The notes under the pieces were generated by a model that saw only the letters and a program-made list of their open reading frames with translations, searched no databases and had not been told where the DNA came from. From Candidatus Saccharimonadota bacterium (lineage in GTDB: Bacteria > Patescibacteriota > Gracilibacteria > UBA1369 > 2-02-FULL-48-14): 32,000 nucleotides of DNA. A program made the translations under genes and the position numbers. Location: assembly GCA_041661045.1 (NCBI GenBank), contig JBAZVE010000001.1, positions 690,001 to 722,000 of the forward strand, given 5' to 3'. Positions within the stretch are counted from its first letter, which is position 1, and the number at the start of each line of letters is the position of its first letter. Of this stretch, positions 1,582 through 14,760 are shown piece by piece.

Positions 1582-1647
1582 CAGGGGTGATATTATCTTT
1601 TTGATTATGTGTATATGCTATGGATAGTAATAAATGGGGCAACCGTC

Positions 1648-3567: not shown

Positions 3568-3685
3568 AAGATTTCGCAGTATGCGATATTCACTGGCTGT
3601 ATAATATCGCACGAAGTGCAGTGCAGCCAGTGAATATGGGTGTAGCGAGGTGCAACCGAGCGAAACCGCATACTGCGTGTTGCCA
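3564..3685 (-). repeat. attC-like site (B), left box degenerate
   Basis: L stems are cgcagtatgcg / cgcatactgcg, followed by -T-gttgcca. The P2 arm is cactggctg..cagccagtg with a ..gcacGAAgtgc.. loop. The left box acataag is degenerate and overlaps a start codon. Confidence 0.6.
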
Positions 3686-3705
3686 TAGAATAATTACGCC
3701 AATTT

Positions 3706-4704: not shown

Positions 4705-4860
4705 GCAAGTGTTAGTTAAGTATTTAGTGGTGTACTGTAGGTTGGAACCGTCGACTCGTCAAGATTAAAATTTATTGTCTAATATGGTTCTATTACAGAA
4801 AATCAAATTTTCGTTTCTTTTTAAAAGTTGACGGGATGGAAAAAGAGAAAAATGTATTTT

Positions 4861-4935
4861 GCCTAATGTCCCTGCGTAGCCAACTTGGGTGAGGGCTTTT
4901 GTAGAAAAGCCCTCACCAGCTATGTAGTGTTGTCG
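4861..4935 (-). repeat. attC-like site (D), short form lacking P2
   Basis: gcctaat-GTCC-ctgcgtagc ... gctatgtag-T-gttgtcg. The body is caacTTGGGTGAG plus a perfect 13-bp hairpin ggtgagggctttt/aaaagccctcacc. The two L-stem mismatches are G.T on the plus strand. Confidence 0.7.
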
Positions 4936-4967
4936 GAAGTATCCAGCTCACTAACTTTTTCAAAACT

Positions 4968-5237
4968 TTAATTTGCTTCTTCGTATTTTTCTAAAAAATT
5001 ATGCATTCTTTTATATTTTTCGTGCACAACAACATCCTCTAGAATTCCTTCAGCTCTTGTCTTTAACAGAATTCGTAAATTTTGAATTATCTGTGGCTGT
5101 ATATTGCCTTCATTGTCTGTTCTAGGTTGTATTTTTGCAAAGACTTCTCCCAAACTAGTCTCACTTAAATGTTCAAGTGCGGCTGCTCTTAACTGAGTCG
5201 GCGTGATTTTTGATGGTGATGTTTCGCCTAGTTCCAT
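4968..5237 (-). CDS. hypothetical protein (cassette ORF)
   Basis: 89-aa ORF. Its last codons and stop lie inside the cassette's terminal inverted repeat. Confidence 0.6.
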   Translation of the reverse strand: MELGETSPSKITPTQLRAAALEHLSETSLGEVFAKIQPRTDNEGNIQPQIIQNLRILLKTRAEGILEDVVVHEKYKRMHNFLEKYEEAN

Positions 5238-5243
5238 TTTTAA

Positions 5244-5271
5244 ATTATATCATATATTTCAAATTTTGCAA
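5244..5271 (-). promoter_or_regulatory. sigma70-like promoter TTGCAA-N16-TATAAT, leaderless geometry
   Basis: On the minus strand the -35 TTGCAA is at 5266-5271 and the -10 TATAAT at 5244-5249. Only 6 nt separate the -10 from the ATG (5237). Confidence 0.5.
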
Positions 5272-5308
5272 ATTAAAGTTTTGAAAAAGAACCAATTCTG
5301 GATATTTC

Positions 5309-5445
5309 GTACAACGGCTGTGCGTTGGTGAAGTTGGACAGTAGTAAAATATACGAAGTGTGACTACTGGCCAACTTGGGTGAGGGCTTTATGGTTGAGC
5401 GAAGCCAGCCTAAAAAAAGACCGAACTGCTAACGCGCTGTTGTAC
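5309..5445 (-). repeat. attC-like site (E)
   Basis: gtacaac-GGCT-gtgcgttgg ... ctaacgcgc-T-gttgtac. P2 is aagttggacagtagt-AAAATAT-acGAAgt-..actactggccaactt, followed by TTGGGTGAG. It contains an exact GCGAAGC. Confidence 0.8.
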
Positions 5446-5492
5446 GATGAAGAAAAAAATGCGTCGCAATTAAAGCACAAATGAATGGCTTT

Positions 5493-5789
5493 CTAGAGGA
5501 GATAGTCAAGGTCAGTGACGAGACTGCCCGTAATGTTCCTAAGTGGTGCCCCCATTTCTGAAGAGGGGTATTTTTCTTGAAACTCAGATAGAGAAGCGTT
5601 TATGACAGGGCCATTTACTGTGAGAGCATATACCACAATGTCATTTTTTCTTCCCAAAATAACAACAGTTCCTCGAGTGCCAAGGTGATTTTTGCCAGTA
5701 AAAACATCTCCTCTTTGTGGGTTGCTCCAGATTTCGTGGGCAATATCTTGAGGAGTTTCTTCATTGCTGGACGCACATGACTCAGCCAT
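5493..5789 (-). CDS. hypothetical protein (cassette ORF)
   Basis: 98-aa ORF, the only long ORF between sites E and F. Confidence 0.6.
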   Translation of the reverse strand: MAESCASSNEETPQDIAHEIWSNPQRGDVFTGKNHLGTRGTVVILGRKNDIVVYALTVNGPVINASLSEFQEKYPSSEMGAPLRNITGSLVTDLDYLL

Positions 5790-5815
5790 TTTGTGATTTT
5801 TTAAATTGTCCTCTC

Positions 5816-5824
5816 ATTATAGCA
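5816..5824 (-). promoter_or_regulatory. extended -10 promoter (TGcTATAAT) for ORF 5493-5789
   Basis: The minus strand reads aTGcTATAATgagaggacaatttaaaaaatcacaaaATG. Confidence 0.45.
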
Positions 5825-5838
5825 TTTTTTCCTTTTTC

Positions 5839-5954
5839 GTACAACGGTCGCAGTATAGCTGAAGTTTATACATGGTAAAATGACCGAAAAGCCAACCAAG
5901 TATAAACTTGGGTGAGGGCTGATCTAGCCCGAACCAGCTATACTGCTGTTAGCT
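5839..5954 (-). repeat. attC-like site (F)
   Basis: gtacaac-GGTC-gcagtatagctg ... cagctatactgc-T-gttagct. It has a P2 with GGTAAAAT, then TTGGGTGAG and a gggct/agccc hairpin, then GAAC. Confidence 0.8.
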
Positions 5955-5962
5955 GATGTTTA

Positions 5963-6274
5963 CTAAATAGATATATCAGTTGGATTTTGTTCCGCATATC
6001 CAAATTTACCTAGGATGTGATTTGCAGCAATCCATAAATCAGAATAATCACCATTAACGATGGCGCTTGTTTCGTCTGGCGATAGATTAGTAACTCCAGT
6101 GGATGCAAAGTCTACTAAAATATCTGTGAGGATTGTATCCTCAGGATGTTCTCTGGCAACATTTAATAATGTGGCAGCGTCAGAGGACTCAGAATGCATC
6201 TTAATGATCTTTGCCAAACCCAAAACTACTTTTTCGTGGGCACTTCGCTTAACTGGTTCGTCATCTATACTCAT
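5963..6274 (-). CDS. hypothetical acidic protein (cassette ORF)
   Basis: 103-aa ORF between sites F and G. Confidence 0.6.
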   Translation of the reverse strand: MSIDDEPVKRSAHEKVVLGLAKIIKMHSESSDAATLLNVAREHPEDTILTDILVDFASTGVTNLSPDETSAIVNGDYSDLWIAANHILGKFGYAEQNPTDISI

Positions 6275-6282
6275 GTCAGTGC

Positions 6283-6309
6283 ATTATAATATATTTCGAT
6301 TGCATGCAA
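6283..6309 (-). promoter_or_regulatory. sigma70-like promoter TTGCAT-N15-TATAAT, near-leaderless
   Basis: On the minus strand the -10 TATAAT is at 6283-6288, 8 nt from the ATG at 6274. The -35 TTGCAT is at 6304-6309. The spacer is 1-2 nt short. Confidence 0.4.
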
Positions 6310-6317
6310 TAAATTTC

Positions 6318-6377
6318 AGCTAATGTTGGGAATGACTGAGCGAAGCGAAGGAATGAACCGCATAGTCATTGTTAGGC
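6318..6377 (-). repeat. attC-like site (G), 60-bp short form
   Basis: agctaat-GTTG..atgact-gaGCGAAGCGAAGgaatGAACc-gcatagtcat-T-gttaggc. It lacks P2 and keeps the GCGAAGC mini-hairpin and GAAC. Confidence 0.65.
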
Positions 6378-6396
6378 GATGTGAATTTTTCTCCAA

Positions 6397-6720
6397 TTAT
6401 TTAGTAGCTTCTTCTTCTTTTTCAAAAATCTTTGAAATCAATTCACGTACAAATGCTTTAGCTTGCTCTACGTCTAGTTCCTCAACATATCCGTCTTCAT
6501 CTAATTTACCATTAAGTACTCCAGCCCTAATTAAGCTTTCAAAAACAGCAAAATCATAGCTACCTGACCCATTAAATCTCTTACCATCAAAAATTCTTTC
6601 CGGATTATTTGTCCATGGGGCTACGGCAAGTTGACGGAGATATTCTCTAAGAGTAACTTCTTTTGCGTTATATGGTTCGTTGGGTTTAACACTGATGTCT
6701 AGAATTTCTTTGTGGTTCAT
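6397..6720 (-). CDS. hypothetical protein (cassette ORF)
   Basis: 107-aa ORF with a consensus promoter immediately upstream. Confidence 0.65.
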   Translation of the reverse strand: MNHKEILDISVKPNEPYNAKEVTLREYLRQLAVAPWTNNPERIFDGKRFNGSGSYDFAVFESLIRAGVLNGKLDEDGYVEELDVEQAKAFVRELISKIFEKEEEATK

Positions 6721-6739
6721 GGTTTTTGAAATAGAATTT

Positions 6740-6767
6740 ATTATATGTCAATCATAATATTTGTCAA
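6740..6767 (-). promoter_or_regulatory. consensus sigma70 promoter TTGACA-N16-TATAAT inside cassette
   Basis: The minus strand reads caacTTGACAaatattatgattgacaTATAATaaattctatttcaaaaaccATG. Confidence 0.65.
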
Positions 6768-6791
6768 GTTGAATGTGGGAAAATTCATTTC

Positions 6792-6897
6792 GCCTAATGT
6801 TCGTGAATAACCGAAGGTTGCTAATGGTAAAACATGCCGAAGGCGGACCGTTGGCAACTTTGGGCGAACGAAGTGAGCCGGTTATTCACTGTTGTAC
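6792..6897 (-). repeat. attC-like site (H)
   Basis: gcctaat-GTTC-gtgaataaccg ... cggttattcac-T-gttgtac. P2 is gttgctaatggt-AAAACAT-gccGAAggc-gg-accgttggcaac with two G.T pairs. It is followed by TTTGGGCGAA and cGAAg. The body is about 90% identical to site M. Confidence 0.85.
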
Positions 6898-6930
6898 GCT
6901 GTATTAAAATTTGATCGCGTTCAGCGAGCA

Positions 6931-6959
6931 TTGGAAGAGTGGCAATTTTTTGCTATAAT
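6931..6959 (+). promoter_or_regulatory. sigma70-like promoter TTGGAA-N17-TATAAT for inverted cassette ORF
   Basis: The -35 is at 6931-6936 and the -10 at 6954-6959. The -35 lies inside the cassette's terminal inverted repeat. Confidence 0.6.
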
Positions 6960-6982
6960 GTAAAGAATTAACTTTTTGTTCT

Positions 6983-7399
6983 ATGGCCATGGAAGGTCCT
7001 AATTACGACGATCCGATTGAGCAAGATAAGCAACACGCTTTGAATCAAATTAGAACTATTGGGCCAGAAAAACCAGTAGGGTATTTGCCAGTAGAAACCA
7101 TCACAGGTTATTGTGGTCAAAATTTTGATGTATTTGTAGCAGAATGTCGTCAGAGAGGTCACGAAACTCGTATATTCACGGGCGGAGGATGGCCTGGTTT
7201 TTCTGGCTCATTGTATGTATATGATAAAGTTTCTCTGCAAAATTTGCTCAATCGGAACCAAAGTATTCTGGAACAATCTGGTTGGCCACTGAATCCTGAT
7301 GAATTTGTAGCTAATCTTCATGTTTGGGTTCAAGAAGGAACTCCTATTTTTAAGTTGATTGCTCAAGCATTTGGAGATAAGTTCAGCGAAAGTCTTTAA
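6983..7399 (+). CDS. hypothetical protein (cassette ORF, inverted relative to array)
   Basis: 138-aa ORF, the only long ORF between sites H and I, with its own promoter. Confidence 0.65.
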   Translation: MAMEGPNYDDPIEQDKQHALNQIRTIGPEKPVGYLPVETITGYCGQNFDVFVAECRQRGHETRIFTGGGWPGFSGSLYVYDKVSLQNLLNRNQSILEQSGWPLNPDEFVANLHVWVQEGTPIFKLIAQAFGDKFSESL

Positions 7400-7447
7400 G
7401 CAAAAATTGCCACTCTTTCAATCCTGTTAGGGAAATTTTAGTATGGC

Positions 7448-7569
7448 GTACAACGTCCGAGACTATGAGAAGTCGGACAGGTGTAAAATACGCTGAAGGC
7501 GTACACCTGTCCAATTTGGGTGAACGACTGATCAAAGAGAAGGAGTGAACCTCATAGTCTCTGTTGTGT
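7448..7569 (-). repeat. attC-like site (I)
   Basis: gtacaac-GTCC-gagactatgag ... ctcatagtctc-T-gttgtgt. P2 is gtcggacaggtgt-AAAATA-cgcTGAAGgcg-t-acacctgtccaat, followed by TTGGGTGAA and ..GAAC. Confidence 0.85.
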
Positions 7570-7598
7570 GATGTTTTGCTGCAGTTACCCAGCGTCTA

Positions 7599-7627
7599 TA
7601 GACAAAATATATGTAAAGTGTTATAAT
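7599..7627 (+). promoter_or_regulatory. sigma70-like promoter TAGACA-N17-TGtTATAAT for inverted cassette ORF
   Basis: The -35 is at 7599-7604. The extended -10 has TG at 7619-7620 and TATAAT at 7622-7627. Confidence 0.6.
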
Positions 7628-7652
7628 TCTTACTTATCCCTAAAGCTTTTAC

Positions 7653-8027
7653 ATGAAGTCAACTACCGATTCAGATCAACCACATTTTAATGGACTGGAG
7701 ATATCAGAGGTGCCCAGAAAAATAAGAGTACGAACTACAACATATCCAAATGGGCTTGTTGGTGTTTTGTCTAGGAATGGCAATTCTGTGACATTTAAGA
7801 CATTAGAAGATGAGAATTACCCCGCTATACAGCAAGCAGGTGGTTATTGCGATGCTGTTTGGGAGTATCAATTTGAATTAGATACTAATGGACAGCCCAT
7901 TCGTACGGTAGAGAAAACGCTTGTAGTAAAGGAAGGTCAGTGGGCACCTTTGGACCCTAGCTTTCCCGAGCATATATCGGAGGGGCCTAATTATATGTGG
8001 AGTGTAATTACTGACACATTGTCATAA
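7653..8027 (+). CDS. hypothetical protein (cassette ORF, inverted relative to array)
   Basis: 124-aa ORF between sites I and J, with its own promoter. Confidence 0.65.
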   Translation: MKSTTDSDQPHFNGLEISEVPRKIRVRTTTYPNGLVGVLSRNGNSVTFKTLEDENYPAIQQAGGYCDAVWEYQFELDTNGQPIRTVEKTLVVKEGQWAPLDPSFPEHISEGPNYMWSVITDTLS

Positions 8028-8045
8028 AAGCTGCAGCAAAATTTC

Positions 8046-8162
8046 ACACAATGTTCGAGACTATGTAAAGTTTGCCAGTGATAAAATATGCTGAAGGCGG
8101 ATCACTGGCAAATTTGAGCGAAACGAGCAAAGCGAAGTGGAGCTACATAGTCTCTGTTGTGA
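8046..8162 (-). repeat. attC-like site (J)
   Basis: acacaat-GTTC-gagactatgta ... tacatagtctc-T-gttgtga. P2 is gtttgccagtgat-AAAATAT-gcTGAAggc-gg-atcactggcaaat, followed by TTTGAGCGAA and aGCGAAGt. Confidence 0.85.
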
Positions 8163-8180
8163 GAAGTTGCTTTGAACTTT

Positions 8181-8408
8181 TTATTTTGCTTTCGATTTGC
8201 TCATTTGATGTACGATGAGCGAAACAATCAGGCCAATAACTCCACCAACAATCATGCTAACGAAAACAACGGGCACAACTGGATTTGAGGATTCTAAATC
8301 TTGAGAGACAATGAATTGGATAGTGCTATAGACGGTGAGAGCTGAGACTAGCCCACAGAGGAGGCCTGTTGCAATGCCTGTTGTATAGAGATGTTTTGGA
8401 TGATGCAT
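8181..8408 (-). CDS. small two-TM membrane protein (paralog of 10213-10440)
   Basis: 75 aa, MHHPKHLY..two hydrophobic helices..SKSKAK. About 70% identical by eye to the ORF at 10213-10440. Confidence 0.7.
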   Translation of the reverse strand: MHHPKHLYTTGIATGLLCGLVSALTVYSTIQFIVSQDLESSNPVVPVVFVSMIVGGVIGLIVSLIVHQMSKSKAK

Positions 8409-8475
8409 AAGTGTAAAGTAAATTATTACCCTGATTGTTTAGACTCTTTTATATTATATGGTTCAAAGCAATTTC

Positions 8476-8581
8476 GTACAACGGTCGCGCATAAACGAAG
8501 AAGACCAGCGGTAGAATATCCCGTAGGGTTACCGCTGGTCAATTTGTGCGAACGAAGTGAGCTGTTTATGCGCTGTTGTAC
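8476..8581 (-). repeat. attC-like site (K)
   Basis: gtacaac-GGTC-gcgcataaac ... gtttatgcgc-T-gttgtac. P2 is gaccagcggt-AGAATAT-cccGTAggg-tt-accgctggtc, followed by TTTGTGCGAA and cGAAg. Confidence 0.85.
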
Positions 8582-8598
8582 GATGCCGTGAAAAATGG

Positions 8599-8841
8599 CT
8601 ACTCTTTTACTGGAAGACAGGTAATTGTACCTAATTCACCACTAACCCAATTGCCATCTAAATCATATAGTCTTGTGATAGTAGATGTTCCGTCAGGATT
8701 GTTTTCCAAAACTTCTCCATGAAATTGTTTGGTAGGGTCATAGGGTTTAAGGCCAAAGTTACTCATCCAGCTAAATTGTGAAAAAGTAAATCTAGGCAAT
8801 TCTTTTGCTTCTTCAGGGGAAAGGGTACGTGGATTCTCCAT
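8599..8841 (-). CDS. hypothetical protein (cassette ORF)
   Basis: 80-aa ORF between sites K and L. Confidence 0.6.
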   Translation of the reverse strand: MENPRTLSPEEAKELPRFTFSQFSWMSNFGLKPYDPTKQFHGEVLENNPDGTSTITRLYDLDGNWVSGELGTITCLPVKE

Positions 8842-8897
8842 ATTTCATGGTGATTAGGAATGTAAACTACTCTAATTATAACATTTTTCACGGTTTC

Positions 8898-9036
8898 GTA
8901 CAACGTTCCGCACTATGCGAACTTGTGCAGGTGTAAAATAGCCGAAGGCGGACACCTGTACAAGTTGGGTGAAGGTTTTTCAGGCTGCGCAAAGCCAGCC
9001 GATCAGAAAACCTGAACCGCATAGTGCGTGTTGTAC
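8898..9036 (-). repeat. attC-like site (L), near-identical body to P
   Basis: gtacaac-GTTC-cgcactatgcg ... cgcatagtgcg-T-gttgtac. P2 is cttgtgcaggtgt-AAAATA-gccGAAggc-gg-acacctgtacaag with one G.T pair. It is followed by TTGGGTGAA, P3 aggtttt../..aaaacct and GAAC. Confidence 0.85.
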
Positions 9037-9062
9037 GCTGTAATAAAAAATGCGATGACAAA

Positions 9063-9296
9063 CTATTTATCTTTCTTTTCTTCAACTCCACCAACCCATT
9101 GAACAACAGGCTTTGCCACTTCTGGCGTAGTTAGAGGTTCGAAAACTACTTCCCCAGCTTTTTTTGCTGTATCACCTGCTTGTGAAACAACTGGAGGTTG
9201 TAAACCATCCCAAGTAACAGCAGGAGATTCTGGCTTGGCAGGTGGCAAAGCCTCCCATGCAGTTACAGGAGATTCTGTTTTTTTTGTGTCAGACAT
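9063..9296 (-). CDS. hypothetical Pro/Val-rich small protein (cassette ORF)
   Basis: 77-aa ORF between sites L and M. Low-complexity composition. Confidence 0.55.
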   Translation of the reverse strand: MSDTKKTESPVTAWEALPPAKPESPAVTWDGLQPPVVSQAGDTAKKAGEVVFEPLTTPEVAKPVVQWVGGVEEKKDK

Positions 9297-9352
9297 GTAA
9301 ATGTTTGTTAAATTATGGTCTATCAGATGATTATAGCATTTTTTGTTATGGC

Positions 9353-9458
9353 GTACAATGTCCGTGAATAACCGAAGGTTGCTAATGGTAAAATATGCCG
9401 AAGGCCAACCATTAGCAACTTTGAGCGAACGAAGTGAGCCGGTTATTCACTGTTAGGC
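9353..9458 (-). repeat. attC-like site (M), H family
   Basis: gtacaat-GTCC-gtgaataaccg ... cggttattcac-T-gttaggc. The P2 stem gttgctaatggt/accattagcaac is perfectly paired. Confidence 0.85.
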
Positions 9459-9472
9459 GTTGGTTAGGGGTG

Positions 9473-10003
9473 CTAACGAATTGATGAAAAAATTTCTTCG
9501 ACTAAACCAGCTTCTGCGACTGGGGGCTGAAAAAATATTTGGCAATAATAATCCTGAGATTTTTCTTCTGACCATTCAGCAAGACTGAGACCGATGTTGC
9601 CATTTCCAACATTATCTTGAGTGCCAAATATTGAGTATTTTACTTTTACTAATTCGTCTTGTTTCTCAAAAGTGCGAGTGTCGGATTGAAGTATTTCAGC
9701 CTCCATGCCGCCTTGCCAGTCGCAGTCGATCATCATTGTTTTCTCCTGTTTTGCGTCGTAAAACTGTGTATAAACTCCTCCTGAATCATAAGTCTCATCA
9801 GCATAAGTCCAAGATGAAGGGTAATCTAATTCATAATTAATGCTACCGAATGTGAAGGAGGTAAGCAGGGCTTCTGGGCTTTCGACTGCGACGACATCAT
9901 CTGTTTCAATGGTAATACCGGAATTTATAGCAGTATCATCTACTTGTGACGAACAGGCGGCAAAAGAAACTGTGATAGCGAATAGGAGTAGAAATTTTTT
10001 CAT
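9473..10003 (-). CDS. putative lipoprotein, unknown function (cassette ORF)
   Basis: 176 aa. The signal peptide has a lipobox-like MKKFLLLFAITVSFAAC. Confidence 0.7.
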   Translation of the reverse strand: MKKFLLLFAITVSFAACSSQVDDTAINSGITIETDDVVAVESPEALLTSFTFGSINYELDYPSSWTYADETYDSGGVYTQFYDAKQEKTMMIDCDWQGGMEAEILQSDTRTFEKQDELVKVKYSIFGTQDNVGNGNIGLSLAEWSEEKSQDYYCQIFFQPPVAEAGLVEEIFSSIR

Positions 10004-10078
10004 ATTTACTTGTTAAATGATACTTGAATCATATCGGAAGTTGTTGTTTTTACAAAACTTCTCGTACCTCTAACTTTC

Positions 10079-10192
10079 GCCTAACGTTCGCGCATATGCA
10101 AAGTGCGAGCGCGGTAAAATGTTAGCACGCAGTGCTACACCGCGCGAGCATTTGGGCGAGGCCTCAGCCAAGCTGCATATGCGCTGTTGTAC
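10079..10192 (-). repeat. attC-like site (N)
   Basis: gcctaac-GTTC-gcgcatatgca ... tgcatatgcgc-T-gttgtac. P2 is gtgcgagcgcggt-AAAATGT-tagcacGCAgtgcta-c-accgcgcgagcat, followed by TTGGGCGAG. Confidence 0.85.
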
Positions 10193-10212
10193 GGTGTTGC
10201 TTTGAGCAAACA

Positions 10213-10440
10213 CTATTTGGTTTTTGATTTACTAACTTGATGTACTGTGAAAGACACGATCGAGCCAATAATGCCTCCAACTAAAAGGCTTATAACTACA
10301 ACTGCAATAACTGGATTTGTTGTTTCTAAGTCTTGTGAAGCAATATATTGCATTGTGCTGTATACGGTTAGTGCAGAAATAAGACCGCAGAGGACACCTG
10401 TTACTAGACCTGTCACATAAAGATGTTTTGGATGATGCAT
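10213..10440 (-). CDS. small two-TM membrane protein (paralog of 8181-8408)
   Basis: 75 aa, MHHPKHLY...SKSKTK. Same length and architecture as the ORF at 8181-8408. Confidence 0.7.
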   Translation of the reverse strand: MHHPKHLYVTGLVTGVLCGLISALTVYSTMQYIASQDLETTNPVIAVVVISLLVGGIIGSIVSFTVHQVSKSKTK

Positions 10441-10501
10441 ATTGATGAAATTAATTATTGGCTTGATTGAATATGATTATTGTACTGCTCAAAGCAATTT
10501 C

Positions 10502-10625
10502 GTATAACGGCCGAGAATATGTGAAGTTTTGTAGCGGTACAATTTGCCCGAAGGGCTCACCACTACAAAACTTGGGTGAGCGACTGAGTGGAACGAAGGA
10601 GAGAACCACATATTCTCTGTTAAGT
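10502..10625 (-). repeat. attC-like site (O)
   Basis: gtataac-GGCC-gagaatatgtg ... cacatattctc-T-gttaagt. P2 is gttttgtagcggt-ACAATTT-gcccGAAgggc-tc-accactacaaaac, followed by TTGGGTGAG and ..GAAC. Confidence 0.85.
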
Positions 10626-10641
10626 GGTGTTGTGCTGATTT

Positions 10642-11154
10642 TTACTTACAATATCCAGTAGACTTGTCATAAGTCTTACCATCGGAGCAGCTGCAACGGG
10701 CATTTAACCAGTCGCCATCCGTTTCCGTACAGTTATTCCCTACGACATCAGTCCAAAAATAATATGCCCCTTCTGGGTTCGGCAAGCCAACAGACACAGC
10801 AAAAGCGGCTCCACCTGGACCGCCGAATGTCGTCTGGCAGTAACCTGTTTTTTTGTCGTACATCATCTCTTGCGTTTGCCTTTCTTCTAGCGGACATTCA
10901 CAAACACTGTCGCTAAATGAACCGCCACTTAATTCACAGTTATATCCAACTAATTCGTCCCATTCATTTGATGAAGTGACTTCAGTTATAGTTTCAGGTT
11001 CGTTTAGTTCTTGCTCTTGGACGGAAACTGATGGCGACTCTTGCGATTCATTCGTTTGCCAAAAGTAAACTCCTCCACCACCAATCAATGCAGCGATAAC
11101 TGCAACGAGTACCATTTTGCTTGTTTGAGACATAAATGTTTTGGTTAAATGCAA
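10642..11154 (-). CDS. Cys-rich membrane-anchored secreted protein, unknown function (cassette ORF)
   Basis: 170 aa. The N-terminal TM helix ends GGGGVYFWQ, followed by an acidic linker. The C-terminal domain has about 10 Cys and a repeated KxTGYC motif. The start may be the internal MSQTSK. Confidence 0.65.
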   Translation of the reverse strand: MHLTKTFMSQTSKMVLVAVIAALIGGGGVYFWQTNESQESPSVSVQEQELNEPETITEVTSSNEWDELVGYNCELSGGSFSDSVCECPLEERQTQEMMYDKKTGYCQTTFGGPGGAAFAVSVGLPNPEGAYYFWTDVVGNNCTETDGDWLNARCSCSDGKTYDKSTGYCK

Positions 11155-11185
11155 ATTTAGCTTACGGGAAAATCAGCGCAATGTC

Positions 11186-11323
11186 ACTTAACGTCCCGCA
11201 CTATGCGAGCTTGTGCAGGTGTAAAATAGCCGAAGGCGGACACCTGTACAAGTTGGGTGAAGGTTTTCAGGCTGCGCGAAGCCAGCCCATCAGAAAACCT
11301 GAACCGCATAGTGCGTGTTATAT
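11186..11323 (-). repeat. attC-like site (P), near-identical body to L
   Basis: acttaac-GTCC-cgcactatgcg ... cgcatagtgcg-T-gttatat. The body matches L almost base for base and contains an exact GCGAAGC. Both R-box hexamers differ from those of L. Confidence 0.85.
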
Positions 11324-11327
11324 GGTT

Positions 11328-11720
11328 TTATTTGCCATCTTCCAAGACGCAATCTGCTTCAATTTCAATCAGCCATTCTGGATTTATAAATCCAGACACT
11401 TCTGCGAAAGTACAGGCGGGCTGTATGTTAGAGAAAAATTCTCCGTGAGCTTTTGCAGCATCTTTCCACGTTTTCATATCTCTTAACAAGATACGTGTGC
11501 GAATTACATCTTCAAGCGAACCGCCGGCTTGCTCGATAACATTTTTGATAATCGTTAGGCAACGTTTCGATTGTTCATATACATTGCCTGGAGAATGAAC
11601 TGAACCATCTTCCGCAATTGGCGCAGTTCCAGTGACAGCGATAAAGTTGCCGATTCTTACAGCCCGCGAAAACCCAATTTCTTTTTCTAACGGCTGATTG
11701 TAAGTGATGTTTTTTCTCAT
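11328..11720 (-). CDS. ridA: RidA/YjgF/UK114 family protein (cassette ORF)
   Basis: 130 aa. FSRAVRIGNFIAVTGTAP...VYEQSKRCLTIIKNVIEQAGGSLEDVIRTRILL...IEIEADC is the typical RidA family pattern. Confidence 0.85.
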   Translation of the reverse strand: MRKNITYNQPLEKEIGFSRAVRIGNFIAVTGTAPIAEDGSVHSPGNVYEQSKRCLTIIKNVIEQAGGSLEDVIRTRILLRDMKTWKDAAKAHGEFFSNIQPACTFAEVSGFINPEWLIEIEADCVLEDGK

Positions 11721-11757
11721 AAATGTTTTTTAAGAGGTAGTGCAGGCAAATAATGCC

Positions 11758-11883
11758 ATATAACGGCTGGGTATAGGCGATGTTGTTGCGCGGTAAAATA
11801 TGCCACGAAGTGGCTCACCGCGCAACAATATGGGAGAACGAAGAAGCGAAGCGACTGAGTGAACCGCCTATACCCTGTTACAT
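11758..11883 (-). repeat. attC-like site (Q)
   Basis: atataac-GGCT-gggtataggcg ... cgcctataccc-T-gttacat. P2 is gttgttgcgcggt-AAAATAT-gccacGAAgtggc-tc-accgcgcaacaat. It is followed by an exact GCGAAGC and GAAC. Confidence 0.85.
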
Positions 11884-12004
11884 GATGTGCATATTTTCCT
11901 TAATTTCTTGAAAAGGAATTCTTCTTTAAAAGAGACTGATTTTGTTTTCTGTTTTGGGCGAGGGCAGAGGGGATTAAGGGGTGAATGCCCGAGCCCAAAA
12001 CTCC

Positions 12005-12832
12005 TCATTCCACGTCTCCTTGCGCTATCCTATTTTGTGCTTCTTGCATTAATTTCTCTGCTTCCTTTTTCATGAGATCATTAATTCTGTCTACTGCATC
12101 CATACTTCCGTTATATCTTTCCATTACTTTCTTATCCCTGAAGTATTTCAGAGTTGTTCCCTCGTATTTCCATACTGTCCAAAGACGATTTTTCATCAGC
12201 TTGAGGTTGTAAACTTTTGCTTCGGCAATGGAGAGGGCATTTTCAATCTTGAGTGAATTTACGAATGTCTCAATCATGGTTATGAATCCGCCAAAATTTT
12301 CGACGAAAGCTGTTCGTTGAGCTGGCGGTCTCATTCGTTCGGGTGTTGCCATTCTCTCATTGCGATCCAGCAACCTTTCAAAGTCATATCGAAATTGTTT
12401 AATATTGCCGTTTGCTGATCTTACCAAGTAATCAGTGATTAAAATTTTGTTGTGAACATAATAACTTTTGAGTCTCATTTTGATCAGATCTTCATCAAAG
12501 TAAATGGCAATGGTTGCTGGGAAATTAGTCTCTTGGATAGCATAAAAATTTGGGTCGGTTACTACTTGAACTTGCTCCACAATTGTTTTTGCTCTGGCAA
12601 TAAAATCTTCAAGCTGACTGACTGCGACAAGTAAATGACTTAATGTTTGAGAAAAAGCTATCTCTGTCCGCCTGATTGCTTCTTTTCTGTTTGATCTCTT
12701 TTGTAGGCACCCTTTAACTAAAAATCCAATAACTGAGAGAATGATTGCTAAAAATGGACCTAGGGCAGAGCCAATTAGCGTTTGCCATTTTTCGATAAAT
12801 TCAGTTGATGTGATTAATTTTAGTGTTTCCAT
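12005..12832 (-). CDS. hypothetical membrane-anchored protein (third gene of three-gene cassette)
   Basis: 275 aa with one TM helix near the N-terminus and a helical/coiled C-terminal part. No recognisable domain. Confidence 0.65.
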   Translation of the reverse strand: METLKLITSTEFIEKWQTLIGSALGPFLAIILSVIGFLVKGCLQKRSNRKEAIRRTEIAFSQTLSHLLVAVSQLEDFIARAKTIVEQVQVVTDPNFYAIQETNFPATIAIYFDEDLIKMRLKSYYVHNKILITDYLVRSANGNIKQFRYDFERLLDRNERMATPERMRPPAQRTAFVENFGGFITMIETFVNSLKIENALSIAEAKVYNLKLMKNRLWTVWKYEGTTLKYFRDKKVMERYNGSMDAVDRINDLMKKEAEKLMQEAQNRIAQGDVE

Positions 12833-12872
12833 TGCTTGTGGATGATACTCTTTTTACCCTATAAAAAACACC

Positions 12873-13508
12873 TTAATTGTATGAGGGAACAGAATGTTCC
12901 CTACAATCATAGTTGCCTTTTATGTTGGCGTTATAGTAACTGCCAAAGGAGGATGCTTTTTGCAGTTCTGCCCAAATTGACTTTGGTGTTTCGCAATAGT
13001 GATAATATTTTCCATTAATGTTCATAATCAAGTAACTGTTGCTTTTGTCGTACCATGCGCCTTCGATGAAAGAGCTTTTTGATGTATTTAAGTATTCAAA
13101 ATATGAACTATCGAGATTAACGGAATCTTTTCGATACTGAACAGCAACGTAATTCTGTTTTGATTGTGAATCTTTTTCGTACTTTTCAAGGCAATCAAAA
13201 AGAATATCGGTCATTAACGATTCTTCTTCGTCTTCAAGCTCGAAGGTCGGATATTCGCCTTGAGAATTTACGAAAGAACCATCTGGTTGAGTTATGTATC
13301 CCTGAGAATTCAGAAATTCATTTCCTTTTTGGGCGGCTTCAGAAAGACAAACGTCATAGAAAGGTGAAGATGTTATCTCCTCAATGGTATTTTTTGATGA
13401 ATTGTCTTGAATATCTGGCCTGAGAACGTAAAACATGAAGCCACCAATAAGAAGTGTCCAAAAGGCAACTATGATTATTATTGGTTTTTTGGAGGAATTA
13501 GTTTTCAT
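12873..13508 (-). CDS. hypothetical membrane-anchored secreted protein (second gene of three-gene cassette)
   Basis: 211 aa with an N-terminal TM helix (PIIIIVAFWTLLIGGFMFYVL) and a soluble domain. Confidence 0.65.
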   Translation of the reverse strand: MKTNSSKKPIIIIVAFWTLLIGGFMFYVLRPDIQDNSSKNTIEEITSSPFYDVCLSEAAQKGNEFLNSQGYITQPDGSFVNSQGEYPTFELEDEEESLMTDILFDCLEKYEKDSQSKQNYVAVQYRKDSVNLDSSYFEYLNTSKSSFIEGAWYDKSNSYLIMNINGKYYHYCETPKSIWAELQKASSFGSYYNANIKGNYDCREHSVPSYN

Positions 13509-13517
13509 AAGTCTGTA

Positions 13518-13781
13518 TCACGTTAAATTAGTAATAATGCCGTAAAGTATAGAAAAAATAATGAAGGAAAAAATAATTCCAAGCTGAATCAGTATGCTTT
13601 TTTTGAGTGGAAATTTGTATATTGCTTCCAAAATTATCCCCAAGGCCAATATCAACGTTAAAACTACTAGCCAAATTATAGAAAAATTAAAATGCCACAT
13701 TAACAGCTCTAACAATATGTAAACAAAAATAATGCCTTGGTTTGTTCTATTATTAAATGTTTTTGTTAGAGCGTTTTTCAT
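13518..13781 (-). CDS. hypothetical small integral membrane protein (first gene of three-gene cassette)
   Basis: 87 aa with 2-3 hydrophobic helices. It lies 9 nt upstream of the next ORF. Confidence 0.55.
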   Translation of the reverse strand: MKNALTKTFNNRTNQGIIFVYILLELLMWHFNFSIIWLVVLTLILALGIILEAIYKFPLKKSILIQLGIIFSFIIFSILYGIITNLT

Positions 13782-13914
13782 GGTTTGTATTATATAGTAA
13801 ATTGTTTTCGGAGCGAAGCGGAGAAAACTCCTTATTTCCCCTCTATAAAACAGAAAACAAAATCAGATCTCATTTTTAAGAATTGGCTTTAGCCAAAAGG
13901 AAAATATGCATTTC

Positions 13915-14036
13915 ATGTAACGTCCGTGTGTTGGCGAAGTTTGGACGTGGTAAAATTAGCACGAAGTGCGTACCACGGCCAAACTTGTGAGAGGCTTTTC
14001 TGGAGGAAAGGCCGAACCGCTAACACACTGTTATGT
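13915..14036 (-). repeat. attC-like site (R), attC of the integrase-proximal cassette
   Basis: atgtaac-GTCC-gtgtgttggcg ... cgctaacacac-T-gttatgt. P2 is gtttggacgtggt-AAAATTA-gcacGAAgtgc-gt-accacggccaaac, followed by TTGTGAGAG, a P3 hairpin and GAAC. Confidence 0.85.
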
Positions 14037-14104
14037 GCTGTTTCATTTTTCATTTGCGACTGAAGGGAGCAAATGTGAGCAAAGTGAACAGAGAAATGCT
14101 TTTA

Positions 14105-14473: not shown

Positions 14474-14523
14474 ATTTTTTGGATTAAGTGATTAAAAGCA
14501 TTTCTCTAAAAAATGGAATGGCA

Positions 14524-14760
14524 CATAACTCGTTTCTAACGGAAAACAGTGCGGCTAGCAAGGGGGAATGGGGTGTTTTGGTGAAATGGGGGAGGAGGAG
14601 TGAAGAAACGAGTTGTGGGGAGTGGGGTGACAAAAAGGTGAATTCTGTAAGGAATTTGTCAGGTTTTTGTCATGAATTTGTCAGAAGGGCGGGGTGGGAG
14701 TGGGAAAAATTCAGGAAAGTTTAAGGAAAAATTCAGAAAAAATTCAGGATTTTTTCAGGT
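14524..14760 (-). promoter_or_regulatory. attI-like junction and intI/cassette intergenic control region
   Basis: acataa|c at 14524-14530 is the exact complement of the site R right box gttatgt, and the cassette inverted repeat ends there. Further right lie 2x GAATTTGTCAG (14652, 14674; 22 bp apart), 3x AAAAATTCAGR (14705, 14727, 14738) and a tract of (R)TGGGG runs (14562-14704). Confidence 0.6.

Follow-up and report, generated by a model that had tools for sequence, protein, structure and literature searches.

Strand-biased folding signals in the attC-like sites of an integron-like cassette array from a candidate-phyla-radiation bacterium

The DNA analysed (i.e., the window) is a stretch of 32,000 nt from assembly GCA_041661045.1 (contig JBAZVE010000001.1, positions 690,001-722,000, forward strand), and the interval under study comprises window positions 4,861-14,036. 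The host is a candidate-phyla-radiation bacterium with a metagenome-assembled genome labelled Gracilibacteria, and its nearest relatives are Peregrinibacteria/Peribacteria. A cassette array spans approximately 1640-14530 of the window, the interval under study being the recombinase-proximal part (Table 1). The cassette ORFs are small and mostly orphan, and this gene content fits an integron. They lie mainly on the strand opposite to the sites (19 of 23 ORFs in the window; in the family, 63 of 81 intervals between sites), in agreement with a first-pass annotation of this DNA in which the plus strand was considered non-coding for most of them. In 11 of 11 loci, the recombinase gene lay downstream of the sites and was encoded on the strand that carries them. 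Judged from sequence, the repeats among these small genes can be identified as the recombination sites (i.e., attC-like cassette ends) of an integron-like array. Related sites were gathered with a covariance model, which gave a family of 133 distinct sites (119 from outside the window), 126 of which were used for folding energies. Site letters map onto D to R of the first-pass annotation, the positions of which agreed with ours (D starting at 4861, R ending at 14037), and the long hairpin previously called P2 is here P1.

Table 1. Positions of sites, cassette ends and recombinase gene in the window
Feature	Position	Strand	Basis and remarks
Truncated site	1640..1690	+	Recombinase-distal array end; read from sequence
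Site B	2927..2963	+	Short derivative; boxes and L stem only
Site C	3561..3687	+	Full three-way-junction site; covariance model 74.5 bits
Site D	4858..4937	+	Without long hairpin; two L-stem G.T; covariance model and folding
Site E	5306..5447	+	5 G.T pairs; GCGAAGC at 5399; plus-minus difference -8.3 kcal/mol
Site F	5836..5956	+	Covariance model and folding energies
Site G	6317..6378	+	Deletion derivative; GCGAAGC at 6340
Site H	6789..6899	+	Long hairpin T.G at 6822/6853 and 6825/6850; covariance model
Site I	7445..7571	+	Covariance model 116 bits
Site J	8043..8164	+	Covariance model
Site K	8473..8583	+	Inner hairpin cap C-GTA-G
Site L	8895..9038	+	Core near-identical to P core
Site M	9350..9460	+	Core near-identical to H core
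Site N	10076..10194	+	Inner hairpin cap C-GCA-G
Site O	10499..10627	+	C.A mismatch 10535/10562; minus predicted 2.1 kcal/mol more stable
Site P	11183..11325	+	GCGAAGC at 11276; covariance model
Site Q	11755..11885	+	GCGAAGC at 11846; covariance model and folding
Site R	13912..14038	+	Cassette adjoining attI-like site; plus-minus difference -7.6 kcal/mol; covariance model
H 3' box and extension	6891..6953	+	Complementary to 7400-7454 (I 5' flank and 5' box)
O 3' box and extension	10619..10645	+	Complementary to 11166-11192 (P 5' flank and 5' box)
Q 3' box and long extension	11877..11960	+	Complementary to ~13830-13921 (R 5' flank/box)
attI-like primary site	14516..14640	+	GGCACATAAC joined to TCGTTTCT, pairs with AGAAACGAGTTG ~80 nt downstream
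IntI-like tyrosine recombinase, 270 aa	14806..15618	+	PF00589 match

There is one attC-like site per cassette, 110-145 nt long, and the predicted fold of its plus strand as single-stranded DNA was a conserved three-way junction. The R stem is formed by the 5' box (...AAC-G) paired with the 3' box (T-GTT...), a one-sided bulge of 3 nt (TYC) follows AAC-G on the plus strand, and the L stem is 11 bp long. In the long hairpin, an AWAAT bulge is conserved and the inner mini-hairpin has a C-GAA-G cap, and the second hairpin has the base GGY-GA...GA-RCC with a tandem G.A pair; in site Q, tandem G.A pairs alternate with Watson-Crick steps of 2 bp along the second hairpin. Compensatory changes were noted at 27 of 35 consensus pairs among the window sites, and 95.7% of cells were paired in the 133 distinct sites as opposed to 70.8% in shuffled and 31-38% in slid controls. 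Site G retains both boxes and the second hairpin together with the L-stem 3' arm, and aligns with the 3' half of the site at 201-327 of L026. The truncated site, which received no score from the covariance model, retains GGTAAAA together with the 5' box and the L-stem 5' arm, and is similar to the 5' half of site R. The crossover triplet 5'-AAC-3' sits on the plus strand, where it marks the boundary of the cassette as well as the attI-like junction.

Computed complementarity of cassette ends was found at all 15 of 15 junctions, where the 3' box of each site paired with the 5' flank and box of the next site over 17-27 bp (20-27 bp in 13 of 15, the pairing of R with the attI-like site included). 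The R stems present in situ are short hybrids of neighbouring cassettes. Further G.T pairs had been claimed for the cassette-end repeats and were found: the end of H, which would give the long R stem of a circularised cassette, showed 57 Watson-Crick, 5 G.T and 0 A.C pairs, and the 27 positions of the end of O included 5 G.T, 1 other mismatch and 0 A.C. The end of Q, which bounds a three-ORF cassette, showed 79 Watson-Crick, 3 G.T and 2 A.C pairs. At the attI-like site, the bases left of AAC derive from the first cassette, the junction of AAC with TCSTTTCT is conserved, and contigs break exactly at this junction. The site is conserved in L026, L001, L002 and L069, occurs as a variant in L029 and L031, and folded more stably as plus than as minus strand (-11.7 vs -7.85 kcal/mol, z -3.3).

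The recombinase resembles IntI in several respects. Its best Protein Data Bank match by sequence (E 1.5e-39) as well as by fold (E 4e-16) was VchIntIA (2A3V), its best NCBIfam model was TIGR02249 (194.6 bits in two stretches; cut-off, 265), its catalytic residues (R, K, H, R, H and Y) are conserved, the C-terminal G-I-R-S-P-L is IntI-like, and the gene is divergent from the cassettes and adjoins the primary site. Unlike IntI, the protein is shorter by approximately 43 residues, missing between chain residues 181 and 246 of 2A3V, exactly at the additional domain (chain residues 182-245), and its model is without the extra helix between residues 177 and 197. Scores were under the curated cut-offs of both IntI and XerA models. 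Sequence and model both indicate a recombinase without the IntI-specific additional domain. Homologues (43-68% identity) were noted in L026, L029 and 8 metagenome contigs, in each case downstream of an array on the same strand. In two published accounts, the additional domain is treated as defining IntIs and as necessary for integron recombination (PMC9668308; PMC4792948). A recombinase without a domain held necessary for integron-mediated recombination is an argument against our main reading.

Obvious differences between mismatch types were noted when stem pairs were tallied on the plus strand. Thus, 35 consensus pairs in 14 full sites comprised 432 Watson-Crick, 38 G.T, 5 A.C and 15 other cells, the last mostly purine-purine, and 15 cassette-end stems comprised 278 Watson-Crick, 36 G.T, 2 A.C and 17 other. 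The earlier view that nearly every mismatch is a G opposite T was therefore correct as to the majority and as to the relative rarity of A.C, but neither "nearly every" nor G.T-only can stand, since A.C pairs exist (e.g., 7474/7513 in site I and that in site O) and G.A, A.G and A.A pairs are common. Purine-purine pairs made up about a third of non-Watson-Crick cells, notable among them being the tandem G.A conserved at the second hairpin's base. The individual G.T pairs were located as previously described, in the L stem of D (4874/4925, 4876/4923), E (5327/5430, 5329/5428, with a third at 5321/5436 added by the model alignment) and R (13933/14021) and in the long hairpin of L (8927/8959), P (11215/11247) and H, where M has A-T at both positions. 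The cores of H and M, said to differ exactly by A-to-G changes, differ at 7 positions, only 2 of which are A-to-G changes that give G.T pairs.

The same bias was evident in the family, with 386 G.T vs 68 A.C in the 133 distinct sites, 126 vs 46 after removal of three conserved G.T columns and 111 vs 43 at variable stem positions of the 119 non-window sites, ratios that could be slightly inflated by the covariance model used for collection, which penalises A.C more than G.T. By column, G.T exceeded A.C in 21 and A.C exceeded G.T in 6 (manual count from the tally table), and two columns had a conserved G.T, one in 126 of 129 sites and the other in 96 of 132. As a check on structure-prediction bias, pairs predicted from the minus strand alone gave 12 G.T vs 2 A.C.

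Part of this excess could be mutational because the plus strand is generally G+T-rich, and one may suppose that the repeats are recombination sites in which the asymmetry arises from compositional or mutational skew, with either strand, a cruciform or duplex DNA being used. We consider this unlikely. GC skew is positive throughout the window, and the plus strand is enriched in G and T both at third codon positions and in intergenic DNA outside the sites (GC skew +0.17 to +0.18, T>A), so that a neutral G.T:A.C ratio of approximately 1.6-1.7 to 1 is expected. The observed excess is far above this value, both in the cassette-end stems (36 to 2) and in the family (126 to 46), which includes loci of unrelated composition. 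Against a null of 0.63, the variable-column test gave p = 0.003 for the family and was marginal for the window alone (15 vs 3, p = 0.056). Skew would also not account for the retention of the two conserved G.T columns, for sites that are purine-rich (A>T) in a T-rich background, for purine-only motifs such as GAA caps and tandem GA, or for an asymmetry of folding that survives when G.T pairing is forbidden. On the side of skew, the near-identical cores of H and M and of L and P are joined to unrelated boxes that differ at both ends, which implies crossovers at both boxes. It follows that exchange must take place at the 3' box as well, and thus the choice of strand may not be absolute.

The c-GAA-g triloop caps described in the first-pass annotation proved to be a real, family-wide feature, the inner hairpin being capped by C-GAA-G in 77 of 133 sites, by GCA in 5 and by GGA in 3, usually in the context GCC-GAA-GGC or CAC-GAA-GTG. 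A C-closed GNA loop, as in d(GCGAAGC), is a stable DNA mini-hairpin motif, and such d(GCGAAGC)/GNA-triloop mini-hairpins were reportedly described by Hirao and co-workers. Like these, most sites are capped by C-GNA-G loops on G-C-rich stems, and four (E, G, P and Q, as claimed) contain the exact heptamer; unlike them, the stability of the site caps is a prediction, from ViennaRNA DNA parameters that may not credit GNA loops. The fifth plus-strand copy of GCGAAGC starts at 13813, one base from the 13812 first given, lies outside any site and folded no better than shuffles (z -0.7). Window-wide enrichment of the heptamer on both strands was not significant (7 copies vs 3.4 +/- 1.95 expected; 6 of 100 shuffles reached 7), and 4 of the 7 copies were on the plus strand within sites, far above the sites' share of the sequence. 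Tandem GA/GA was found in 93 of 133 sites and an unpaired G was invariant at two positions; these features, together with the C-GAA-G caps, the 5'-Y-GA-R-3' form of the tandem G.A and the AWAAT bulge, occur on the plus strand only.

Comparison of folding energies with DNA parameters indicated that the plus strand was more stable for 13 of 17 window sites, equal for 1 and less stable for 3 (mean -2.1 kcal/mol; e.g., -29.9 vs -27.1 kcal/mol for site C), as the first-pass annotation had anticipated. In the family, the plus strand was more stable for 116 of 126 sites (mean -3.2 kcal/mol, Wilcoxon p 4e-20) and remained so with G.T pairing forbidden (-0.88 kcal/mol, 95 vs 25 sites). A hairpin of a different family (11951-11997), taken as a control, folded equally on both strands (-13.8 vs -13.2 kcal/mol); the asymmetry is therefore not general to the region. 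With RNA parameters, the asymmetry was larger (-8.9 kcal/mol, 123 of 126 sites), as might be expected if plus-strand transcription of the repeats, antisense to the cassettes, yielded structured RNAs. Also in keeping with RNA are the G.U and tandem G.A pairs, which are classic RNA signals, and the conserved TGGTATAAT/GGTAAAAT bulge, which on the plus strand looks like an extended -10 element. We nevertheless regard this explanation as quite improbable, as the repeats matched no Rfam family even at E values up to 1, the main cap, a GNA loop of 3 nt with a C-G closing pair, is of the DNA mini-hairpin type and no RNA tetraloop, the ends of the elements are cassette boundaries that each pair with the box of a neighbouring site, a tyrosine recombinase and an AAC junction invariably accompany the elements, and promoter-like matches in the region were at chance level (30 vs 25.3 +/- 6).

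The nearest comparison is with canonical attC sites, especially the long, array-homogeneous repeats of sedentary chromosomal integrons such as that of Vibrio cholerae. The GAA triloop at the end of the attCaadA7 bottom strand is a likeness to the present caps. As in canonical arrays, a single imperfect palindrome stands at the 3' end of each cassette ORF, the array is co-oriented and adjoins a divergent recombinase gene, the terminal boxes contain AAC/GTT triplets with the crossover triplet on the non-coding (bottom) strand, the sites in situ are hybrids of neighbouring cassettes, and stability, G:T mispairs and purine content are all higher on the bottom strand. Unlike canonical attC, the L box here is without single extrahelical bases, and the AAC arm bears a one-sided 3-nt bulge. 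In place of a "variable terminal structure" there is a conserved three-way junction that distant genomes and metagenomes share, together with its invariant unpaired bases (AWAAT, G, tandem GA). In addition, the circular cassette has an R stem of 20-27 bp as opposed to 7 bp, the boxes are RYRY-like (GTTGTAC) and not strictly GTTRRRY, and many cassettes have strong putative promoters of their own. For canonical attC, the bottom strand was reported to be 2.12 kcal/mol more stable, with 1.24 vs 0.39 G:T mispairs and a purine skew, and its extrahelical bases lie opposite AAC, as opposed to on the same arm for the top strand (Nivina et al. 2016, PMC5027507). The plus-strand folding signal itself is thus known integron biology and not new in kind, because the same bottom-strand bias has been published.

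The conserved 3-nt bulge on the AAC arm is a contrary feature, having canonical top-strand geometry. On the plus strand, the TYC bulge comes after AAC-G, whereas on the minus strand it lies opposite that strand's own AAC, as in a canonical bottom strand (PMC5027507), and the H/M and L/P pairs of sites need crossovers at the 3' box, where AAC is on the minus strand. It might thus be the minus strand that is recombined, with the apparent G.T pairs of the plus strand representing C and A deliberately left unpaired. We think this very improbable. The recombinase is without the domain that reads extrahelical bases, and therefore the canonical bulge rule need not apply; the orientation of ORFs and recombinase and the plus-strand junction of AAC with TCGTTTCT make the plus strand bottom-like; and the minus strand, less stable in 116 of 126 sites, would bear TC/TC tandem mismatches and TTC loops.

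A second comparison is with Xer recombination of folded phage single-stranded DNA, as in the forked hairpin of CTX-phi attP(+) at dif and in IMEX elements, where the recombinase is without an IntI domain, the site is one folded strand and only that strand is exchanged. Like that system, an Xer-type recombinase without the IntI domain would here act on a site folded from one strand. Unlike it, arrays of many gene cassettes are present with no phage, and the platform adjoins rnpA-yidC-type genes (in L031 also dnaA) and not a terminus dif; a dif-like core site of 28-31 bp was not recognised here.

The earlier proposal that the plus strand is the folded strand, following the bottom-strand logic of integrons, was supported in that all computed orientation markers agreed, these markers being mismatch types, folding energy, purine motifs, AAC, ORF strand and recombinase position. 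The interval is thus probably part of a chromosomal integron-like cassette array in which the plus (bottom) strand is folded and recombined. Selection would act on the plus-strand fold only, and stem substitutions giving plus-strand G.T would be tolerated for that reason, with loops and mismatches taking the form of purine motifs that would have no stable minus-strand counterpart. The fold with its covariation, the strand asymmetry, the pairing of cassette ends and the constant linkage and orientation relative to the recombinase are results of computation; single-stranded recognition, the point of cleavage and the identity of the catalyst we infer as follows. The neighbouring IntI-like tyrosine recombinase would bind the folded plus strand, cleave it within 5'-AAC-3' between the second A and the C, and exchange it, the partner being either a second folded site or the attI-like site at 14529, whereby cassettes would be excised or inserted; in an excised circle, the 3' box, the next 5' box and their flanks would form the 20-27-bp R stem. 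From its sequence, the element looks like an undescribed integron variant, of a type that is abundant in metagenomes.

Small ORFs, mostly on the minus strand, were found to fill the window from about 1640 to 14530, each with an attC-like repeat of 110-145 nt on its left, and a tyrosine recombinase gene adjoined this array. Beyond the recombinase lay ordinary chromosomal genes (ComEC, tRNA-Glu, DUF4349, endonuclease III and an SLH/DPBB protein), the same chromosomal stretch continuing with Jag, YidC, RnpA and acetate kinase. Cassette ORFs were opposite in strand to the sites in 19 of 23 cases in the window and, among the matches listed, in 63 of 81 inter-site intervals family-wide. They were short, mostly without a Pfam match (exceptions were RidA/L-PSP, KTSC and a methyltransferase) and almost without homologues among other sampled arrays, a character that is of the usual integron type. 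Two cassettes encoded 75-aa membrane proteins that were 71% identical, and the sites beside them (J/K and N/O) were unlike one another. Near-consensus sigma-70-type promoters were noted just upstream of the ORFs in several cassettes; one matched at 12 of 12 positions and two are predicted to drive plus-strand ORFs, so that expression may not depend on one platform promoter. The array of a related Peregrinibacteria locus (L026) was interrupted by insertion sequences (rve, DDE_Tnp_1) and by a Y1 (IS200/IS605-type) transposase with G+C-rich hairpins of its own.

Positions of features in the window and in related loci from other assemblies
Feature	Sequence	Position	Strand	Remark
Sites A0, A, B, C	window	left of site D		repeat inventory
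Sites D to R	window	4858-14038	plus	letters of the first-pass annotation kept
Sigma-70-type promoter match	window	5244-5272	minus	
Sigma-70-type promoter match	window	6740-6767	minus	
Sigma-70-type promoter match	window	6931-6959	plus	
Sigma-70-type promoter match	window	7599-7627	plus	
ORFs with predicted cassette promoters	window	6983-7399; 7653-8027	plus	
Cores of sites H and M	window	6799-6890; 9360-9451		AAC-G to T-GTT
Cores of sites L and P	window	8905-9029; 11193-11316		AAC-G to T-GTT
GGT plus A-W-A-A-T element	window	6826-6833; 9387-9394		alignment columns 49-56
Membrane-protein cassettes	window	8181-8408; 10213-10440	minus	
Second hairpin family	window	11951-11997	plus	
Second hairpin family	L029	4373-4465		
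Second hairpin family	L034	2746-2768		
Second hairpin family	L087	7966-7988		
Second hairpin family	L132	823-845		
Complement of 3' box of site R	window	14520-14529		GGCACATAAC
Direct repeats	window	14668-14760		
Tyrosine recombinase, 270 aa	window	14806-15618	plus	adjoins array
jag-yidC-rnpA	window	23353-25426		
Insertion sequences	L026	1721-4442; 7157-7934; 8834-9262		
ATTCAGG...TTTGTCAG pair	L026	~9940-9965		
G+C-rich stretch	L029	~9790-10000		
G+C-rich stretch	L031	~9800-10000		
dnaA	L031	17255-18736		

Given the 14 full-length window sites, a three-way junction of 35 pairs was obtained with RNAalifold, and compensatory double changes were present in 27 of these consensus pairs. Read 5' to 3' on the plus strand, the site opens with a 5' box whose last bases are AAC, then a G facing the T in front of GTT. 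A one-sided T-Y-C bulge leads into the L stem, whose 5' arm measures about 11 nt. An invariant G comes next, then a long hairpin (about 15 bp) in which A-W-A-A-T is unpaired and which includes an inner mini-hairpin; a further invariant G stands before a second hairpin of the form GGY-GA-(variable stem-loop)-GA-RCC. The L stem is completed by its 3' arm, and T-GTT with the 3' box ends the site. From this window consensus a covariance model was built, which found 15 window sites, on the plus strand without exception, six sites upstream of a 67%-identical recombinase in Peregrinibacteria genome CP064962.1 (L026) and two upstream of a 56%-identical recombinase in locus L029. A metagenome motif scan yielded at least 120 contigs, and the model, applied to the first 100 listed, gave at least 148 further sites in roughly half of them, in arrays of up to 11 that were always co-oriented; the site family is common in metagenomes among the matches listed. 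None of 10 viral-contig pattern matches contained a true site according to the model, which speaks for its specificity.

Standard pairs accounted for 95.7% of cells in the resulting family of 133 distinct sites, compared with 70.8% in shuffled controls and 31-38% in slid registers, and the L stem showed compensatory changes at 9 of 10 pairs with 96.7% of cells paired. Since the R and L helices covary, the site is an imperfect palindrome with R and L boxes, as in attC. These repeats fold, and their fold is under selection. Of about 129 family sites, 127, 127 and 120 had A, A and C, respectively, as the bases of the 5' box triplet (with T in 8), opposite G-T-T, while the RYYYAAC/GTTRRRY purine/pyrimidine pattern outside the triplet was approximate only (e.g., GTTGTAC). 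Between the R and L boxes, where canonical attC has an unpaired central spacer, there were the conserved G opposite T and a one-sided 3-nt bulge in 126 of 129 sites. No conserved single-base bulge was present in the consensus of the L stem, which has 10-11 stacked pairs, and T-Y-C, located after AAC-G and on the arm of AAC, accounts for all conserved extra bases. The terminal part was a conserved three-way junction with invariant unpaired nucleotides in 133 sites from many contigs. In all full sites, the paired GGT and unpaired A-W-A-A-T read TGGTATAAT or GGTAAAAT, a plus-strand sequence that resembles an extended -10 promoter element; it may serve as a bulge recognised by a protein, or else as a signal for promoter activity or priming on single-stranded DNA.

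The first-pass annotation had claimed, under the label "G.T-only", that nearly every scored stem mismatch is a G opposite T when the plus strand folds, and had proposed from this that the plus strand is the folded one. Its individual pair statements for sites D, E, H, L, P and R, checked one by one, were correct, and in the systematic tally A.C was not as common as G.T (table below). By helix, window counts of G.T and A.C were 19 and 2 for the in-situ R stem, 4 and 0 for the L stem, 13 and 2 for the long hairpin and 2 and 1 for the second hairpin. Because structure prediction on the plus strand could itself favour G.T, a consensus was also predicted from the reverse-complement alignment; its pairs, read on the plus strand, gave 12 G.T versus 2 A.C in the window and 26 versus 6 with L026. 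When the three columns with conserved G.T were removed, the family retained 126 G.T versus 46 A.C (p 4e-10 for departure from 1:1) and the 119 non-window sites 111 versus 43, and G.T exceeded A.C in 21 family columns versus 6 the other way. Thus, the tallies in the window, the reverse-complement pairs, the family and the columns indicate that the G.T bias on the plus strand is real and general. The observation was confirmed in substance but the word "only" was too strong, since A.C cells exist and purine-purine oppositions are frequent. The commonest of the latter was a tandem 5'-Y-GA-R-3' at the base of the second hairpin, with GA opposite GA in 93 of 133 sites; in site Q and in L026 201-327, the second hairpin is built of 2-bp Watson-Crick steps and tandem G.A pairs in alternation. 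These motifs are also strand-specific, the minus-strand equivalent being TC/TC.

Oppositions scored on the plus strand
Set	Watson-Crick	G.T	A.C	Other
Window, 35 consensus pairs x 14 sites	432	38	5	15
Window cassette-end stems, 15 junctions	278	36	2	17
Family, 133 distinct sites, among the matches listed	3890	386	68	126

Certain procedures were set aside in reaching these counts. Folding with G.T forbidden as a definition of strand-neutral stems often lost the consensus fold (sites D, E and H), and consensus pairs predicted per strand together with the family alignment were used instead. Automatic helix extension counted overlapping helices twice and gave spurious A.C cells in site Q; it was kept solely for verifying individual pairs. 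Gapped local alignment of cassette ends ran into AT-rich noise, its totals of 76 G.T versus 40 A.C not being meaningful, and the cassette-end tally rests on ungapped stems of 17-27 bp.

Base composition was weighed as a neutral source of the bias. The plus strand is enriched in G and T, both in intergenic DNA outside the sites and at the third codon position of minus-strand ORFs (background GC skew +0.17 to +0.18, A-T skew -0.04 to -0.10), so that a neutral process would give about 1.6-1.7 G.T per A.C, or a null G.T share of 0.63. Against this null, the excess was significant for the family (p 0.003) and marginal for the variable columns of the window alone (15 versus 3, p 0.056); addition of the cassette-end stems (13 non-conserved G.T, 2 A.C) gave 28 versus 5, clearly above it. 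Moreover, the sites are purine-rich (G>C, A>T) whereas the background is T-rich, and generic G+T skew is thus no explanation for their purine content.

Similar stabilities of the two strands were not seen when folding energies were compared. With DNA parameters, the plus strand was better in 13, equal in 1 and worse in 3 of 17 window sites (mean plus-minus difference -2.1 kcal/mol) and better in 116 of 126 family sites (mean -3.2 kcal/mol, Wilcoxon p 4e-20). With G.T forbidden, it was still better in 95 family sites versus 25 (mean -0.88 kcal/mol), and with RNA parameters in 123 (mean -8.9 kcal/mol). As a control, an unrelated conserved hairpin in the array, the window member of the second hairpin family, was symmetric (-13.8 versus -13.2 kcal/mol). 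This family has a stem GTTTTGGGCGAGGGC/GCCCGAGCCCAAAAC and a conserved loop AGAGGGGATTAAGGGGTGAAT, and its members were noted inside cassettes, always on the same strand as the attC-like sites.

An inner hairpin of at least 3 bp was present in 113 of 133 sites, with a 3-nt loop in 95 of those 113. This loop read GAA in 77 sites, a further 8 had GCA or GGA, and a C-G closing pair was present in 77; the caps thus match C-GNA-G, a stable DNA mini-hairpin motif. Of the exact heptamer GCGAAGC, also singled out in the first-pass annotation, the reported copies were found (5399, 6340, 11276, 11846 and 13813), but the window total of 7 was not above chance (3.4 +/- 1.95), and the copy at 13813 lies outside any site and folded no better than shuffles.

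Nivina et al. (2016) found the bottom strand of 263 canonical attC sites to be 2.12 kcal/mol more stable, with a residual strand difference of 1.28 kcal/mol once G:T was removed, to carry more G:T mispairs (1.24 versus 0.39) and to be purine-enriched (PMC5027507). Corresponding values here were 2.1-3.2 kcal/mol, a 2.7- to 7-fold G.T excess, a residual 0.9 kcal/mol and purine-rich sites, and they match canonical attC in direction and size. The earlier inference was therefore correct and re-derives a published rule: mismatch types, energies and purine content support the plus strand as the folded strand, according to the bottom-strand logic of integrons. As the strand bias repeats a published property of attC, it is by itself confirmation and not discovery.

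In contrast with these likenesses, the architecture of the sites departed from that of canonical attC. Canonical extrahelical bases lie near L'' on the arm opposite the bottom-strand AAC (PMC5027507), whereas the L box here has no single extrahelical bases and the conserved bulge is on the AAC arm, as in the canonical top-strand geometry (PMC5027507). Similarly, the terminal structure of canonical attC is variable and not conserved in sequence but is here a conserved three-way junction with invariant unpaired bases, and the circular cassette has a very long R stem.

The length of this stem was evident at cassette junctions. At 15 of 15 junctions, the 3' box of one site and 8-18 further bases were complementary to the 5' flank and 5' box of the next site, in stems of 17-27 bp (20-27 in 13 of 15), with a TG/TT or TG/GT mismatch at positions 10-11 in most and G.T at position 11 in 14 of 15, while the box pairs inside one site in situ form short hybrids. 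Both ends of one cassette thus belong together, and the crossover would lie inside the boxes. Much longer terminal inverted repeats were present in three cassettes, among them both of those with the long cassette-end repeats already reported in the first-pass annotation. Near-identical cores were shared by sites H and M and by sites L and P, whose boxes on both sides, both flanks and neighbouring ORFs are unrelated, so that exchange has to take place at the 3' box as well. It could come about through occasional top-strand events, through copying of cores or through a second strand exchange in which hairpin tips are swapped.

At the last junction, the 3' box of site R pairs with GGCACATAAC, directly followed by TCGTTTCT. 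The junction AAC-TCSTTTCT beside the recombinase gene was kept in six related loci (L026, L001, L002, L069, L029 and L031), and the bases to its left differed between loci; from this conservation it is read as a putative attI-like insertion point with exchange at or beside the AA-C step on the plus strand. In the window and closer relatives, TCGTTTCT pairs with AGAAACGA-GTTG about 80 nt downstream, so the primary site may fold too (-11.7 kcal/mol for the plus versus -7.85 kcal/mol for the minus strand). The distal inverted copy, AGAAACGAGTTG, was found only in the window, L026, L001 and L002, with a shorter version in L069, and L029 and L031 keep AAC-TCCTTTCT alone; a folded attI is thus not established family-wide.

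Several other features were noted around this junction. Five independent assemblies (L001, L002, L027, L028 and L030) end on the array side of the recombinase, L001/L027 and L002 at 0-50 nt from AAC-TCGTTTCT and L028 and L030 slightly inside the platform, as population-level variation in cassette content would lead one to expect. The stretch from the attI-like site to the start of the recombinase gene contains direct repeats (AATTTGTCAG three times and AAATTCAGGA-like four times), which are candidates for accessory binding sites or for an operator; relatives keep the pair ATTCAGG...TTTGTCAG, in L026 and, upstream of the recombinase, in L001, L002 and L030. A G+C-rich structured stretch, GGGCTAGCCC ... 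GGCAATTCC ... CTGCTGCCGGCC.CCATCGAGTCTTCTTTGGGGGCC plus a T run, lies between junction and recombinase in the more distant relatives L029 and L031, is absent from the window, and may be a small RNA or regulatory element.

The catalytic domain of the recombinase was recognised as PF00589 (E 5e-39), with R131, K156, H220, R223 and H246 invariant and Y255 nearly invariant among 30 homologues. Its best NCBIfam model was TIGR02249 (integron integrase), at 194.6 bits against a cut-off of 265 and with the match split in two, followed by XerA (190.4 bits, cut-off 220). Among Protein Data Bank entries, VchIntIA (2A3V) came first in sequence (E 1.5e-39) and in fold (AlphaFold model with pLDDT 86.7, Foldseek E 4e-16, 311 columns for a 270-residue query), with XerA second. 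Chain residues 182-245 of 2A3V are passed over in the sequence alignment, opposite query residues 178-198, and this jump (181 to 246 versus 177 to 199) indicates that about 43 residues are missing at the IntI-specific domain, at which position the AlphaFold model has no extra helix. In the literature (PMC9668308, PMC4792948), this additional domain is used to define IntIs and is described as necessary for integron-mediated recombination. With the defining domain missing, the protein was not filed as an IntI; by alignment and predicted structure, it is an IntI-like recombinase without the IntI-specific domain and, unlike integron integrases, lacks the domain that reads extrahelical bases.

The nearest relatives of this recombinase, at 63-67% identity, were from Peregrinibacteria and Peribacteria. 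Homologues of 43-68% identity lay downstream of sites on the same strand in 8 metagenome contigs among the matches listed, all about 270 aa and aligned without a large insertion; together with the window, L026 and L029, the recombinase was downstream of same-strand sites at 11 of 11 loci. A divergent recombinase, a co-oriented array and a primary site between them were present in the window and 10 other loci. In the window, 8-10 kb separate the platform from jag-yidC-rnpA; in L031, a 52%-identical relative, its distance from dnaA is 7 kb, and both surroundings are origin-type neighbourhoods. A housekeeping dif/Xer system was considered as an explanation and not favoured, given this placement of the platform among origin-type genes and the cassettes in every relative examined; a non-exhaustive look for a dif-like core of 28-31 bp recognised none.

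Fold, strand asymmetry, cassette-end complementarity and a conserved platform were thus all evident from computation. That the repeats are structured RNAs instead of folding DNA is only weakly tenable, as an Rfam 15 scan at E up to 1 returned nothing on the repeats (tRNA-Glu and three chance-level matches were elsewhere), the triloops are of DNA type and the repeat ends coincide with cassette junctions. In the DNA reading, the plus strand would fold when single-stranded, during replication or after DNA uptake; the recombinase would bind the R and L stems and cleave between AA and C; and exchange of one strand, whose partner would be either a second folded site or the attI-like site, would excise or insert cassettes. 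GC skew was positive across the whole window without a switch, suggesting that the plus strand may be the lagging-strand template, which is the less common orientation among chromosomal integrons (PMC5371416).

The strand bias is known for integrons; its carrier departs from canonical integrons, and no description of it was found in the searchable part of the literature on integrons or attC in the candidate phyla radiation, Patescibacteria, Peregrinibacteria or Peribacteria. Less expected than the bias is this setting, namely a recombinase nearest to integron integrases but without the domain held to be needed for single-strand recombination, and sites that are conserved three-way junctions and not simple hairpins with extrahelical bases. 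It is quite possible, although we would put it a little short of an even chance, that these arrays represent a second, structurally distinct lineage of gene capture by folded single-stranded DNA, widespread in bacteria of the candidate phyla radiation, in which the IntI-specific domain of an IntI-like recombinase either was never present or has been lost, and the enzyme would read three-way-junction sites by way of conserved bulges, G.T wobbles and tandem G.A pairs in place of extrahelical bases, the system being either a surviving intermediate between Xer and IntI or a parallel invention. If active, the system would bear on the origin of integrons from Xer-like recombinases, on strand selection without recognition of extrahelical bases and on gene acquisition by genome-reduced bacteria of the candidate phyla radiation, and would offer new structure-specific recombination sites for engineering.
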